Below are positions 35,299-38,159 of a stretch of DNA of 64,000 nucleotides, one piece after another (position 1 is the stretch's first letter; every line of letters begins with the position of its first letter). Origin of the DNA: an uncultured Methanospirillum sp. GTDB lineage: Archaea; Halobacteriota; Methanomicrobia; Methanomicrobiales; Methanospirillaceae. The stretch is taken from the NCBI GenBank assembly GCA_963668475.1, contig OY764544.1:3407986-3471985 (forward strand). The letters run 5' to 3'. The translations under genes and the position numbers were made by a program. Below the pieces are notes generated by a model. That model saw nothing but the letters and a program-made list of their open reading frames with translations. It searched no databases and had not been told where the DNA came from.

Positions 35299-36000
35299 TC
35301 ACTGTGATCCCTGGAGTAAGGTAGCATCATTGAGGTGATACCTGAGTGTTCTACCGGTTCGCTCAACCGTGATGACGCCTCCCCTGAGAAGACGAGAGAG
35401 GTGCCAGCCTGCTGCCTGGGCTGAAATCTCAAGTCTGCACCCGATCTCAAGACGGGTAAGACTCTTGTTTTTACAGAGCATTGCAACAATCTCTTTGCAG
35501 GCAGGAGATGCAGCAGCGTTCATCATCTGTTTCTCTTCTGGGGAATAACCCATTGGATAGTACCTGCTAAATCCATCATCCTGTTCTTTTGATATCGTAC
35601 CAAATCTGGTAAGTTGATCCAGGTGATGCCTGACCGTACCAAGCTCCATACCAATACCTGATGAAATGCCCCGAAGATGAATTCCCGGATGATTTCTGAT
35701 AAAGTCAAATATCTCTTTGCGGGGTTGAGAGTCAAAGAGGGTGCTCCGGTCAATCCGGCGATACCCCAGGGCAACGATTGCCTTAAGGAAAAGGAGGAAT
35801 GGATTGAGAAGGACTATCTGCGATAAAATCAACCATAGTGGAAGTTCAATCAGATCCACCCGGGATGGACAACCAGGATGACCATCAGGGAGATCATCAT
35901 ACGCACTACTGACCTGATATCTGGTTGCCATCACCTGGGCTGGGATACAGATCAGGAGAAGAAGTAGTATCAGTAAAATCCTCATGGTTACTCCTGCCAT
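35299..36000 (-). CDS. Membrane-tethered tandem winged-HTH regulator
   Basis: Signal-like N-terminus, a second hydrophobic segment, then two wHTH units (RKEIFDFIRNHPGIHLR.I...GTVRHHL..L and LTRLEI..RLEISAQAAGWHLSRL..GGVI). Confidence 0.85.
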   Translation of the reverse strand: MAGVTMRILLILLLLLICIPAQVMATRYQVSSAYDDLPDGHPGCPSRVDLIELPLWLILSQIVLLNPFLLFLKAIVALGYRRIDRSTLFDSQPRKEIFDFIRNHPGIHLRGISSGIGMELGTVRHHLDQLTRFGTISKEQDDGFSRYYPMGYSPEEKQMMNAAASPACKEIVAMLCKNKSLTRLEIGCRLEISAQAAGWHLSRLLRGGVITVERTGRTLRYHLNDATLLQGSQ

Positions 36001-36671
36001 GTTTCAATCTGAAATGGAACCGGACTTTGAAGATGCTCGCCGTGAACACGATAATACCATCTTCCGGGATCCAAGCCTTCTGTAGAGTTAATCTTCATGA
36101 AGATCGCCTGATCCATCTTCCCGTCTGCATCATCATGGTACGGGCCATACTCTCCGTCAGGGGTGTAAATCGTCAGGTTCAGGGCAGAGGGCTGACTCCA
36201 TGATACCCGGACATACTGCTGTGTCTGTCCTGGGGCAATCGCATCAGAAAAATACTTATCTTCCTCTGGATTTAGTATCTGCAAAACACCCGGGTTATTT
36301 GGATCTGACATCTCTGATACATTGTATATCTTTACGATCACGATATTTTCAGTGCCTGTTCCTATCGATTCTGCAATGCCGTATGTAACAGCACTGCCTG
36401 ATTTGACGGTATCAGATGAACCTGATGTGGAGATTGTAACATAGGAGTTTGATAAACCATCCTGAGTGGAATGGTTCTCCTGTCCATCATTGGTCATGAT
36501 TGTTACACATACCGGTTCTGCCGGAGAAAGGATAGGAATGAAGAGCAGGATGAAGATAATTGCGGATAAAGCCTTTATCACACCGCTGCGTGTCATACAA
36601 TACCGGTTGTCCGGGATACTATTGAAGGGTTGTGGCACAATTCTTTTCTCATCCTTTTCGGGGGTATGCAA
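35988..36671 (-). CDS. Secreted protein with a pre-peptidase C-terminal (PPC)-like beta-sandwich; true start probably downstream
   Basis: Signal peptide; SWSQPSALNLTIYTPDG.YGPYHD..DG..D..I...I....GLDPG.WYY.V.G; overlaps the wHTH start. Confidence 0.7.
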   Translation of the reverse strand: MHTPEKDEKRIVPQPFNSIPDNRYCMTRSGVIKALSAIIFILLFIPILSPAEPVCVTIMTNDGQENHSTQDGLSNSYVTISTSGSSDTVKSGSAVTYGIAESIGTGTENIVIVKIYNVSEMSDPNNPGVLQILNPEEDKYFSDAIAPGQTQQYVRVSWSQPSALNLTIYTPDGEYGPYHDDADGKMDQAIFMKINSTEGLDPGRWYYRVHGEHLQSPVPFQIETWQE

Positions 36672-36685
36672 TAGGAGAGGTTCTT

Positions 36686-37042
36686 TCAGGGGGTTTTATT
36701 CCTGAATCCGGTTCCAACAACAGCACCTGTGGTTCGATCATAGATCGTCATCATTCCTGTTGCATCCGGTCCTTCAATGCGGAACTCTGTATTATGTTCT
36801 GTTCTCTTCTTCTCAAACTCTTCCGGAGTGAGGCTTTGTAGGAGTTCACCGGTATCAACATTTTTTACAATGTAATGAGTTCCATCAAACTCTGTCGAGG
36901 TAGTGACGGTAAAAACCTTGGCAGTCCCGTTGTCTGTGGTTTGTTCAGGCACCAGAATCCCGGCAACCGGGATGATAATGAGGGATATACAGACCAGAAG
37001 GGCGCCAAGGACTGCACATCCAATACGTATGTGTGTGTTCAT
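36686..37042 (-). CDS. Small secreted hypothetical protein (paralog A)
   Basis: The ATG at 37042 gives the signal peptide MNTHIRIGCAVLGALLVCISLIIIPVAG. The domain TTST.FDG..Y..KN..TG..L......EF.K.RT.....RI.GPD..G..T.YD is shared with paralog B. Confidence 0.7.
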   Translation of the reverse strand: MNTHIRIGCAVLGALLVCISLIIIPVAGILVPEQTTDNGTAKVFTVTTSTEFDGTHYIVKNVDTGELLQSLTPEEFEKKRTEHNTEFRIEGPDATGMMTIYDRTTGAVVGTGFRNKTP

Positions 37043-37133
37043 GATAATCAGGGGTATGCCGGATCTTACCGGATTCATCCCCGTAATCAATGTCTGCATC
37101 GGATAGTATCCAGATTCCGGCACATCCCTTTTC
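37039..37133 (-). repeat. 95-bp conserved leader, copy A, ending at the paralog A start codon
   Basis: 83/95 identical to 37871..37965 with no gaps. Confidence 0.92.
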
Positions 37134-37407
37134 ATCTGAGTCGACTTGGTGATGGAAATGAAGGTGATGATGCTTTCTTTGTTTTTGGAATGATACATGA
37201 GCATTTAAAAAAATCAGGAGCACTCGACGGACACTCCTCAAAGCAGAAAATCTCGAGACATAATCTCAGGTGGCCAGTTATCTGTGGTACTACATTCAGA
37301 GAGAGGATAGGGGCAGTTAGCAGGATGACTTGATGCCTTGAATTGGCATTACTATCATCCTGCAGATTTTTTCTGATCCTTCGTGGGGTTTGGGGTAGAA
37401 GAACAGA

Positions 37408-38010
37408 TCAGTGGGTTGTTATGAATTCGGTTGCGACATGTCCCTCATTTACCGAATCAGAAATAGTGATCGTATCACCTGATCCTGACCAGTACCCTGC
37501 ATTCAGGGGCTGTTCATAAAATGAAATCATTTCAGATACATCAGGCCTGACAATTCTACTGGTGATCGGATCATAATATGTGATCCTGCCGTATGAATCA
37601 GGCCCGGTAATCCGGTATTTATCCTCAAGAGCCGTCCTTCTCTTCTGAAATTCAGGTTCAGAGATGGTTACTAGTACTTTTCCGGTAACATCGTTTTTTA
37701 TGTGGTAAAACGAGCCATCAAACATCGTTGATGTAGTTATCGGGTCATAATCGGTTGTCCCGGTGACCGTTGTCACTCCCTGTATCGGATTTGCGACAAC
37801 TGGCAGGATACAGAGGGAGAAACTGATCATAACGAGACAGATGGTTATTATTTCATACGTTTGTGAGTTCTCATGATAATCAGGGGTATGCCGGATTATC
37901 CCGGGTCCATCCCCGTTACCATAGTCTGCATGGAATAGTATCCTGATTCCGGCACATCCCTTTTCGAGAGAACTGGTATGATCAAAATGGAATGAGTGTG
38001 GCTGCTTCAC
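37408..38010 (-). CDS. Small secreted hypothetical protein (paralog B); start uncertain and possibly frameshifted near its 5' end
   Basis: Shares its domain with paralog A. The homologous ATG at 37874 is out of frame (MRTHKRMK*); an in-frame ATG lies at 37830. Confidence 0.6.
   Translation of the reverse strand: MKQPHSFHFDHTSSLEKGCAGIRILFHADYGNGDGPGIIRHTPDYHENSQTYEIITICLVMISFSLCILPVVANPIQGVTTVTGTTDYDPITTSTMFDGSFYHIKNDVTGKVLVTISEPEFQKRRTALEDKYRITGPDSYGRITYYDPITSRIVRPDVSEMISFYEQPLNAGYWSGSGDTITISDSVNEGHVATEFITTH
37871..37965 (-). repeat. 95-bp conserved leader, copy B
   Basis: Direct repeat of 37039..37133 with 12 mismatches. Confidence 0.92.
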
Positions 38011-38159
38011 GGATAGTACACCTGAATAATTGCTAAAACACGTGATGATCTTATTTTACGCTGATTGCATACAGAATTGTCAAAGAAAAGAAATAAGGTC
38101 CCGGATGTGATTATTAAGGATTCATCTCTGTTAAATTATTCTTCAGGAATCATTCCGAT

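Follow-up and report, generated by a model that had tools for sequence, protein, structure and literature searches.

The DNA stretch analysed in this work (64,000 nucleotides, the window) carries two copies of a leader of about 95 nt on its minus strand. The question raised by this locus is whether the leader is conserved as a folded RNA, as DNA or as part of a protein. The original prediction described it as a multi-stem, riboswitch-like RNA and gave the DNA target of the adjacent winged-helix protein as a fallback.

The repeated leader and the genes of the cluster

The duplication, which had been given as 83/95 identical, was confirmed by a repeat search of the 64-kb window. The direct repeat lies at 37023-37133 and 37855-37965, is 111 nt long with 86% identity, and has the minus strand as its sense strand. 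Over the leader proper (94 nt, from GAAAAG to the ATG), 82/94 positions are identical between the two copies. A 25-mer of the block has two occurrences in the window and none in 100 shuffles. Copy 1 (37023..37133) consists of the leader and the first six codons of g1, and copy 2 (37855..37965) consists of the leader and the first codons of g2. A third, diverged copy of the 5' half of the block precedes g3 at 36594-36648, where the geometry finishes exactly at the ATG. The leaders were compared in syntenic clusters that supplied 14 distinct leaders from about 8 Methanospirillum lineages.

All genes of the cluster are encoded on the minus strand. The gene g1 (36686..37042) encodes a membrane-anchored or secreted protein of 118 aa. 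Its true start is the ATG at 37042 and not that of the 149- or 172-aa extended ORF: the homologues, 112-118 aa long, match the final 79% of the 149-aa ORF only. No Pfam match was found for g1, and structure prediction with fold search gave no usable match. The gene g2 (37408..37874) is a paralogue of g1 that encodes 155 aa in its orthologues and is frameshifted here by a 1-nt deletion after codon 7 (MRTHKRMK*), near 37856; in a related strain the missing base is present at 37856. The proteins encoded downstream of the two copies had been said to share only scattered residues. They are clear paralogues (E 9e-20), at only 40% identity. The differing reading frames of the two copies and the stop codon in one frame arise because g2 of this strain has the deletion. 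Every orthologue of either gene begins at the equivalent ATG at the block's end.

The gene g3 (35988..36596) encodes a secreted protein of 202 aa and is predicted to be leaderless from cluster comparison. The C-terminus of its product resembles a PPC/collagen-binding-like beta-sandwich, which is a generic fold match only. The fold searches of g1 and g3 did not reveal the function of the putatively regulated proteins. The last gene of the cluster (35299..36000) encodes a predicted membrane-anchored regulator, identified by domain search and conserved gene order. It has two hydrophobic segments at its N-terminus and, after them, two winged-helix domains (PF24266, HTH_24/HTH_20), and a conserved short loop, ATRYQVSSAYDDLPD, is placed outside in the predicted topology. 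PF24266 (HTH_HVO_0163_N) is an uncharacterised archaeal regulator family. Wherever the fetched cluster extends far enough, the regulator gene comes directly after g3. The two recognition helices of the regulator, GTVRhHLDQL and ISAQAAGWHLS, do not vary between clades in which the protein is 53% identical overall.

Conserved motif and promoter-like spacing

Block positions 1-15 form a conserved motif, GAAAAnRRWTGTGCC, that is near-invariant in all orthologous leaders and is proposed as the site of the winged-helix regulator. It lies before g1 (GAAAAGGGATGTGCC, 37119..37133), before g2 (37951..37965) and, as a third copy found by pattern scan and cross-cluster comparison, before g3 (GAAAAGAATTGTGCC, 36634..36648), each time on the minus strand. 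The pattern GAAAANRRWTGTGCC has exactly three sites in 64 kb against 0.19 expected, and all three are within this cluster. All lineages fetched have 2-4 motif copies per cluster, always with the PF24266 regulator. One motif thus occupies equivalent positions at several promoters and co-occurs with a regulator gene, as expected of a regulon. The distance from the end of the motif to an A+T-rich box is 6-9 nt at the three promoters of each cluster.

The conservation extends beyond the motif. The 24-mer GATGTGCCGGAATCWGGATACTAT is found exactly upstream of both g2 and g1 in every close-clade cluster. Positions 1-31 are identical at 31/31 in 9 of the 11 close-clade leaders, whereas the spacer at 32-51 matches at only 6-16 of 20 positions between species. 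The proteins encoded by species sharing the invariant positions 1-31 are 50-75% identical. The core motif is also kept in clusters where g3 is only 40-46% identical, and before the non-paralogous g3. These patterns suggest that positions 1-31 and GGGGATGA are under deep purifying selection. An uninterrupted run of 31 invariant nucleotides is more than a typical operator needs, which speaks against the promoter-operator model. One cluster (L023) carries an orphan fourth copy in which block positions 1-48 of the g3 module are duplicated and divergence begins just before the ATG position; this arrangement matches what may be a portable promoter unit.

Searches of genome contigs with the exact g1/g2-type pattern of 19 specified bases returned only the two sites of M. 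lacunae and about 5 bacterial matches at chance level. No evidence of a genome-wide regulon or a mobile element was found among such exact g1/g2-type matches. A g3 profile search of metagenome contigs returned a single locus, from the same species as the cluster L006.

The A+T-rich boxes are candidate TATA boxes. The g1 box is TGGATACTAT (block positions 22-31, 37103..37112), and this position is A+T-rich in every g1/g2 leader. The g2 box is AGGATACTAT (37935..37944), located by alignment and A+T scan. The g3 box is CTTCAATAGT (36618..36627), where the 8-mer starting at position 22 agrees with TTTAWATA at 6/8 positions on average. Between -45 and +45, only the 8-mers that start at 22-27 (g3) and at 24-25 (g1/g2) contain at least six A+T in every sequence, so that an A+T-rich element fixed in position, as expected of an archaeal promoter, was found. 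The boxes of the close clade (ATACTAT and CAATAGTA) are poor TATA boxes. Positions 22-31 are the canonical ATATAAAT in distant relatives. In the distant clusters with 40-46% identical g3, the box is TTCAATATAAAT or TTCAATATACAT before g3 and CTTTTATC before g1, and the TATA element of the distant g3 leaders reads ATATAAAT or ATATACAT. For comparison, the tRNA promoter of the window has GTATAAAT 26 nt upstream of the tRNA 5' end. The candidate BRE of g1 is GGAATC at positions 16-21. The variants at these positions are GGAATC, ACAACC, AGAACA and AAAAAC, in which AA at 18-19 is invariant and C21 is present in all but one leader. They fit the BRE consensus loosely only.

The distances are fixed. 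In 13 of the 14 g1/g2 leaders, GGGG follows GAAAA at a distance of exactly 51 nt, and the GGGGATGA at this point is invariant. In the g3 leaders the ATG follows GAAAA at exactly 52 nt throughout, while the 18 nt preceding that ATG are unrelated between clades. Every sequence has a pyrimidine directly before G52 (g1/g2) or before A53 of the ATG (g3). Indels are restricted to the hairpin loop (columns 65-69), apart from one gap of 1 nt within positions 1-51. In archaea, the TATA box is found about 26-28 nt ahead of the start site (PMC8553660). No Shine-Dalgarno-like sequence was found upstream of the g3 ATG in the window and the related clusters. A crude scan found an SD-like 5-mer in 5/34 ORFs of the window, where start codons are too uncertain for this count to back a leaderless g3. 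In the close clade, a conserved TTGTATAA lies 16-23 nt upstream of the g3 block; it could be an alternative g3 TATA box, in which case the start site would be at about block position 8.

Folding of the leader and competing explanations

The riboswitch-like reading holds that GGGAUGUGCCGGA and UCCGGCAUACCCC close a multi-stem RNA with two small hairpins inside, which would sense a ligand or protein and control translation. The pairing is present in both window copies, dominates their MFE fold with z of -2.8 to -4.6, and finishes 8 nt before the AUG. The 13-bp closing stem had been described as 12/13 paired and invariant in the two window copies. Across the 14 leaders, 54.8% of its cells are paired, the central pairs 10-79, 11-78 and 12-77 are formed by 3-4 of 14 sequences, and uncompensated changes occur in the 3' arm opposite an invariant 5' arm. 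The three helices of the original prediction together have 61.8% of cells paired against 60.6% in shuffles, and their covariation over the 14 leaders is no better than that of shuffles. RNAalifold keeps only the GGGG/CCCC helix (four invariant G-C pairs, covariation term -0.19). Hairpin 1 is missing in the distant clade and hairpin 3 has one-sided changes only. The Rfam scan of the whole window at gathering scores returned tRNA only, and that of 36500-38150 at E<=5 returned three chance snoRNA-like matches on the other strand and nothing relevant. The block thus matches no known Rfam riboswitch or cis-regulatory RNA family, and, apart from some support for a local hairpin, it lacks the conserved fold and compensatory changes of a structured cis-regulatory RNA. 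The comparative data largely refute this reading, and we regard it as very unlikely.

The hairpin segment of the window g1 leader is g2-type: it matches g2 copies at 27/32 positions and its own orthologues at 16-18/32. The 3' arm of the stem is specific to the window lineage and arose by conversion between the two copies, and the concern that recent gene conversion explains the identity holds for the 3' half in this genome. The copies of another lineage, J3, share derived spacer substitutions (19/20). It might then be proposed that the block has no function and that its identity is only a trace of recent paralogue duplication or gene conversion. Conversion did happen, yet positions 1-31 and GGGGATGA are invariant between species, the core motif is retained in the distant clusters, and in M. 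lacunae and J6 the spacers are orthologous and unconverted while the 5' halves of both copies are nevertheless identical. A functionless block has minimal probability. The high identity of the whole 95 nt would instead result from purifying selection on 1-31 and GGGGATGA together with lineage-specific conversion of the hairpin segment.

Conservation as protein is equally hard to credit. It would take the form of an N-terminal extension (149- and 200-aa products) or of a conserved upstream ORF, either MCRNQDTI..., which begins at the ATG within GATGTGCC, or a short ORF that begins at the GGGGATGA ATG. Gene callers run both genes through the block, the differences between the window copies are mostly synonymous or conservative in the g1 frame, and 6/14 leaders have an ORF of 9-10 codons from GGGGATG to the TGA of CCCCTGATT. 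However, the g1 homologues start at the block-end ATG, a TAA interrupts the g1 frame in copy 2, and the loop carries indels of lengths not divisible by three. Leaders of the distant clade and of g3 have ATT in place of the ATG of GATGTGCC; over 11 sequences eight codons have no synonymous variation and the sole variable position alters the amino acid. The GGGGATG ORF differs in frame, length and end in the leaders W_g2, L17, J3_g1 and L23. The N-terminal extension and both upstream ORFs were rejected on these grounds, in line with the earlier view that the block is unlikely to be conserved as protein.

A stronger competitor, though still an unlikely one, is that the whole block is transcribed from a promoter upstream, with the start at or before block positions 1-8. 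The invariant 5' 21-31 nt would then be an operator overlapping the start, at which the winged-helix protein represses, or a site at the RNA level, namely a largely unstructured protein or small-RNA site common to three mRNAs. Contigs labelled as RNA-Seq span the blocks. Four contigs from three runs start within 21 nt of the g3 block start, two of them exactly at block position 8, and the TTGTATAA of the close clade is conserved 26-27 nt upstream of that position. A metatranscriptome contig (X16) extends 51 nt beyond the g1 stop codon into the g3 motif. In the cluster L016, contigs begin at positions 24 and 44 of the g1 block and at -7, 8 or 15 of the g3 block, and cover the entire g2 block plus 76 nt upstream, which is what a fully transcribed block would give. 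If these contigs represent RNA, the starts at -7 to +15 speak against a leaderless g3. The transcript data are assembled, unstranded contigs of 2-6x depth, and the runs must contain DNA because they also hold contigs of 90-140 kb; read-through from upstream genes is another possible source of the coverage. The G-U-tolerant changes of the hairpin indicate a role as RNA for the 3' half at least, but no conserved structure was found at positions 1-51. Upstream of the g1/g2 blocks there is no consistently A+T-rich element, and the sequence is unalignable between species. Transcription of the whole block leaves unexplained the A+T box at 22-31 in all three leader types, and also the fixed spacing between the motif and the g3 ATG or GGGG despite the turnover in between. 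We consider it doubtful, and less probable than transcription of the block as such, that the transcribed 5' 21-31 nt (GAAAAnRRWUGUGCCnnAAnC...) act as a fold-less RNA recognition element common to the three leaders. Its reader would be a trans-acting protein or small RNA, conceivably the membrane-tethered winged-helix protein. If true, this would be a new class of archaeal post-transcriptional leader, through which envelope sensing acts on the translation or stability of mRNAs for secreted proteins.

Proposed control region and its relation to known systems

The block is most likely a composite DNA and RNA control region and not one folded RNA. It is probably a conserved archaeal promoter combined with a regulator site and a short hairpin-bearing 5' UTR, which agrees with the fallback of the original prediction. 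Positions 1-15 would be the upstream site of a sequence-specific transcription factor, and positions 16-31 a BRE-like stretch with a weak TATA box. The predicted start of transcription is about 26 nt beyond the box, at the invariant GGGGATGA (position 52). The g1 and g2 mRNAs would then have a 5' UTR of only about 40 nt, with one 5'-terminal hairpin (GGGGAUGA...UCAyCCCC) followed by UGAUUAUyAUG. The same module would serve g3, whose ATG falls exactly on the predicted start site and would give a leaderless mRNA. For the invariance of GGGGATGA, this model offers only the start site or initially transcribed sequence and the hairpin strand.

The likeliest factor is the double winged-helix protein with a predicted membrane anchor whose gene closes the cluster; its binding to the motif is proposed by guilt by association, and we infer it from the constant company of motif and gene. 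The promoter-operator model predicts GAAAAGAGATGTGCC as the sequence that a cluster-encoded or cellular protein should bind. Since the motif lies directly next to the BRE and the TATA boxes are weak, the factor probably activates transcription by recruiting TFB/TBP.

The hairpin GGGGAUGA...CAUACCCC of the g1 leader (block 52-83, 37051..37082, minus strand) was identified by spacing, pairing and local folding. With the start site predicted at or near G52 (37082), it would be 5'-terminal in the g1 mRNA. The equivalent segment of the g2 leader lies at 37883..37914 (minus strand), with a predicted start near 37914. The local hairpin 52-60/75-83 has 81% of cells paired and modest covariation, a score reached by 9/500 shuffles, and its pairing is kept through G-U pairs and two double changes. 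The g1 hairpin has -15.1 kcal/mol and z of -1.7. Its 5' strand, GGGGAUGA, is strictly invariant, which points to a further constraint on the DNA. A separate stable hairpin (-22.8 kcal/mol, z -5.15) lies between g2 and g1 at 37320..37363 on the minus strand, as part of the g2 3' UTR or as a separate element. It is conserved across species, with AUGCC/GGCAU changed to CUGCC/GGCAG.

The proposed site resembles upstream activating sites of other archaea. The Ptr2 UAS of Methanocaldococcus is an upstream activating site that adjoins the BRE/TATA. The EarA activator binds motifs at a fixed distance upstream of the BRE of archaellin operons (PMC10665913). Both EarA sites and the present motif are short and lie at a small fixed distance upstream of other elements at several promoters, namely the BRE/TATA for EarA and the A+T box here. 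However, the present site is a single asymmetric 15-mer unrelated to TACATA, in contrast to the repeated hexamers of EarA, and its presumed factor is a membrane-anchored double winged-helix protein of PF24266 whose binding and activation are putative.

Membrane-bound one-component transcription factors exist in archaea, as in ArnR/ArnR1 of Sulfolobus acidocaldarius (PMC6396743). Both ArnR/ArnR1 and the bacterial ToxR/CadC, like the present regulator, combine an HTH and transmembrane segments in one polypeptide and are associated with genes of surface or secreted proteins, which are putative targets here. ArnR has an N-terminal HTH and C-terminal TM segments. The topology of the present regulator is inverted, with the winged helices after the N-terminal hydrophobic segments, and its putative targets are three small secreted proteins and not pili or archaella.

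The block is similar to Rfam riboswitches and leaders in that it abuts the start codon, is better conserved than the coding sequence and has a stable predicted fold in this genome. It differs from them in having no family match and a fold that is neither conserved nor covarying, and half of it is probably untranscribed. The hairpin is similar to stabilising 5' hairpins in its predicted position at or a few nucleotides from the mRNA 5' end, before the ribosome-binding region. Its stability is modest in comparison (z about -1.6), and such a role is putative.

The findings in this work open no new biological category, and they caution that promoter conservation together with local gene conversion can produce a strong RNA fold in one genome. 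Three gene models are corrected: the existing annotation calls two leaders as coding, and g2 is frameshifted in this strain. We know of very few archaeal activator sites and of almost no membrane-bound archaeal transcription factors with known targets. The PF24266 family gains a sharply defined candidate cis element, namely a 15-nt motif with fixed promoter geometry. The cluster is a self-contained unit in which one regulator is combined with three promoters and three secreted proteins. It is also present in the complete genome of the cultured Methanospirillum lacunae Ki8-1 (CP176093.1), and it may be a handy test system.

Gene cluster and its repeated leader

The cluster consists of four minus-strand genes in the order g2, g1, g3, and regulator. 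The small genes g1 and g2 are paralogues (40% identity). The g3 gene (35988-36596, minus strand) encodes a 202-aa secreted protein with a C-terminal PPC/collagen-binding-like beta-sandwich. The 55 residues after its signal peptide are predicted to be disordered, and its C-terminal ~100 residues form the predicted beta-sandwich (pLDDT about 80) that resembles clostridial collagenase collagen-binding/PPC, subtilase C-terminal, and GOLD domains (Foldseek E about 4e-4). The regulator (35299-36000, minus strand) has 233 aa, with two hydrophobic segments at the N-terminus ahead of two winged-helix domains (PF24266 and HTH_24/HTH_20; PDB relatives 5duk and HlyU/ArsR). The g2-g1-g3-regulator synteny is also found in Methanospirillum lacunae and several uncultured Methanospirillum lineages. 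In more distant clusters, a single small gene precedes g3 and the regulator. In every cluster examined with enough flank, the regulator gene is located directly after g3. A Cass2/GyrI-like gene adjoins the cluster on a side that varies among species.

The duplicated leader reported in the original prediction is borne out. The leaders of g1 and g2 lie in a direct repeat of 111 nt with 86% identity (37023-37133 and 37855-37965, minus-strand genes), and both copies are identical at 82/94 positions from GAAAAG to ATG. A 25-mer of this block has two occurrences in the window and none in 100 shuffles. A third copy precedes g3, where the 55 nt ahead of the ATG are near-invariant across close species. 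At the start of this g3 leader, the motif recurs as GAAAAGAAWTGTGCC and leads into CTTCAATAGTAT. At up to one mismatch, the pattern GAAAANRRWTGTGCC has exactly three matches in the 64-kb window (0.19 expected), all in the g2-g1-g3 cluster.

In public gene calls, the block is read as part of both downstream genes (36686-37204 and 37408-38010, minus strand), which gives 149-aa, 172-aa, and 200-aa products. The g1 homologues (112-118 aa) match only the portion from the ATG at the block end, and g1 (117-118 aa) and g2 (155 aa) both begin at this ATG in four syntenic clusters. Coding N-terminal extensions were rejected as annotation artefacts by orthologue comparison. The block had appeared to stand in different frames before the two genes because g2 of the window is frameshifted by one lost base (37850-37874, minus strand). 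This 1-nt deletion relative to the orthologues leaves MRTHKRMK* from the conserved ATG, and an extra A behind 37856 in a related strain (run X7) restores the 155-aa frame. The window reading recurs in the independent assemblies X1 and X3, so g2 is probably a true pseudogene or in a phase-variable state.

Conservation and spacing of the leader

Alignment A3 consists of 14 distinct g1/g2-type leaders. Positions 1-31 (GAAAAGRGATGTGCCGGAATCWGGATACTAT) are identical at 31/31 in nine of the 11 close-clade sequences, and a 24-mer within them is exact at g1 and g2 in every close-clade cluster. The spacer at positions 32-51 is identical at 6-16/20 between species and has a single 1-nt gap. GGGGATG (positions 52-58) is invariant (14/14). 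The hairpin loop and 3' strand (positions 60-79) are variable and hold all other indels, followed by conserved CCCC (positions 80-83) and TGATTATYATG (positions 84-94). The distant-clade leader reads GAAAA[TC]GATTGTGCCAAAAACAGCTTTTATC...GGGGATGAAACCAGTAAACCCCATCATCCCCGGATTGATATG, and the surviving core is GAAAA-N4-TGTGCC, an A+T-rich box, and GGGGATGA with a perfect 8-bp partner. The distant-cluster g3 leader consists of GAAAAGAGATGTGCCAGAACAATTCAATATAAATAGG, 15 unrelated nt, and ATG. The motif in this leader does not differ from that of the close-clade g1/g2 leaders, and the A+T box is a canonical archaeal TATA sequence.

The X7 strain has an 11-nt insertion at window 37907 (CATCCCGGGTT, plus strand), in the hairpin loop of the g2 leader. 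The insertion duplicates GGGATGrACCC in tandem within the hairpin segment, which shows that indels in the loop are tolerated.

All g3-type leaders keep a spacing of exactly 52 nt between G1 of the motif and the ATG, although their final 18 nt are wholly different between clades. The corresponding spacing to GGGG in the 14 g1/g2 leaders is exactly 51 nt, with one exception. A pyrimidine precedes G52 (g1/g2) or A53 (g3) in every case. From -45 to +45, a content of at least six A+T was reached in all sequences only by 8-mers that begin at 22-27 (g3) and 24-25 (g1/g2). The g3 8-mer at position 22 has a mean of 6/8 matches to TTTAWATA. A tRNA promoter in the window has GTATAAAT 26 nt ahead of the mature 5' end.

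Two further matches were observed elsewhere. A related locus (L023:4184-4232) has an orphan fourth copy just after g2 (motif and CAATAGTAT box), without an ORF behind it, that runs straight into the conserved post-g2 hairpin. Its duplication of the g3 module covers positions 1-48 and breaks off just ahead of the ATG position, which suits a promoter-sized unit. In that lineage, it might start transcription of a non-coding RNA or an additional transcript of g1. A bacterial scan match (L011:5050-5300, minus strand; uncultured Sangeribacter MAG, Bacteroidales) is a tandem array of two interleaved ~64-nt unit types with a ~128-nt period. It contains G(A/T)TGTGCCGGAATCAGGATATAAAAGAG, a 20-nt exact match to the archaeal motif and A+T box including the A+T-rich tail. 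This resemblance is probably coincidence, as the count of bacterial matches in the scan fits chance.

RNA structure of the leader

The long closing stem proposed for a riboswitch-like RNA forms in both window copies (z -2.8 to -4.6). The riboswitch-like interpretation is not supported across A3, where 54.8% of cells in this stem are paired, its central pairs form in 3-4 of the 14 leaders, and no measure is convincingly above shuffles or slid controls. The motif itself makes up the 5' arm, hence the invariance on that side, and the 3' arm is free to drift. RNAalifold retains only four G-C pairs (GGGG/CCCC), and Rfam gave no match for the block. A local hairpin (52-60/75-83) is better supported than this stem, with 81% of cells paired, G-U replacements, and two pairs with double changes, and its covariation score was reached by just 9/500 shuffles. 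In the window, this hairpin is predicted to be of ordinary stability (z -1.5 to -1.7). There is a resemblance between positions 6-18 (GGGATGTGCCGGA) and 53-65 (GGGATGAATCCGG), so a 3' strand under selection for local pairing also pairs with the upstream motif on paper. The g1 hairpin segment of the window is identical at 27/32 to g2 of the window and of the close relative J3 and at just 16-18/32 to the g1 leaders of J3 and L23, the closest relatives, which indicates that the g2 copy converted the 3' half of the g1 leader in the window lineage. This conversion and the internal resemblance account for the apparent strength of the long stem in the window.

Another, very stable hairpin (37320-37363, minus strand) lies between g2 and g1 (GCAGGAUGAUAGUAAUGCC...GGCAUCAAGUCAUCCUGC, -22.8 kcal/mol, z -5.15). 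It is kept in syntenic loci, with one compensatory inner-stem change from AUGCC/GGCAU to CUGCC/GGCAG (L003), and shares GGAUGA/UCAUCC with the leader hairpin. No T-tract was found behind it. It could serve g2 as a 3'-end or processing structure, or represent a small RNA.

In six of the 14 leaders, the ATG of GGGGATGA (window 37074-37079) opens an ORF of 9-10 codons including the stop (e.g. MNPGNPVYP* and MKLKLFTP*), which ends at the TGA of CCCCTGATT just ahead of the main start. Three distant-clade leaders have 13 codons with the stop overlapping the main ATG (ATATGA), and in the remaining leaders the ORF is in a different frame or runs on. With an mRNA start at GGGG, it would be a near-leaderless upstream ORF, but it varies too much among the leaders to be called conserved.

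Candidate promoter and regulator site

The simplest reading of the geometry is a putative factor site at positions 1-15, a BRE-like stretch at 16-21, and a TATA box at 22-31, followed by a spacer and a predicted transcription start at 52/53. A TATA centre near 26 with this start would fit the archaeal TATA-to-start spacing of roughly 26-28 nt (PMC8553660). The g3 mRNA would be leaderless, and no Shine-Dalgarno-like sequence was found ahead of the g3 ATG. The g1 and g2 mRNAs would have a ~40-nt 5' UTR. In a distant cluster (L018:4925-4945), a T8 tract occurs between the g1 stop and the g3 motif. Such tracts are typical signals for archaeal termination, which suggests that g3 needs its own promoter there.

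The main rival, in which the block is itself transcribed as a leader, is considered less likely. On a related locus (L016), contigs from RNA-Seq-labelled runs begin at g1 block positions 24 and 44 and at g3 block positions -7, 8, 8, and 15, and contigs cover the g2 block and 76 nt upstream. These contigs favour a transcribed block if they derive from RNA, and a conserved TTGTATAA located 16-23 nt upstream of the close-clade g3 block is a possible TATA box for such a start. However, the same runs hold contigs of 90-140 kb, which indicates that DNA is present, their depth is just 2-6x, and transcripts from g2 or g1 could plausibly read through. A metatranscriptome contig that matches the window exactly spans 36635-36894 only, which covers the 3' part of g1 and 51 nt and ends in the g3 motif.

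The regulator is 53% identical between clades overall. No changes occur in either presumed recognition helix (MELGTVRhHLDQL and ISAQAAGWHLS) or in the short loop (RYxVxSAYxDLPD) that separates the hydrophobic segments. This invariance parallels that of the motif, a correlation from which we infer that the regulator may bind the motif. The alternative in the original prediction, a DNA target of the adjacent winged-helix protein, is the best-supported reading from the sequence comparisons. In refined form, it would be a module of a candidate regulator site, a BRE/TATA promoter, and, for g1 and g2, a short hairpin 5' UTR, with three copies in the cluster. There is precedent for a motif at a fixed distance upstream of BRE in EarA (PMC10665913) and for membrane-bound transcription factors in ArnR and ArnR1 (PMC6396743). 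The block adds a new case to a known class of elements, and its general interest is modest. It is useful for annotation, and it is an entry point to an uncharacterised family of predicted membrane-anchored archaeal regulators.
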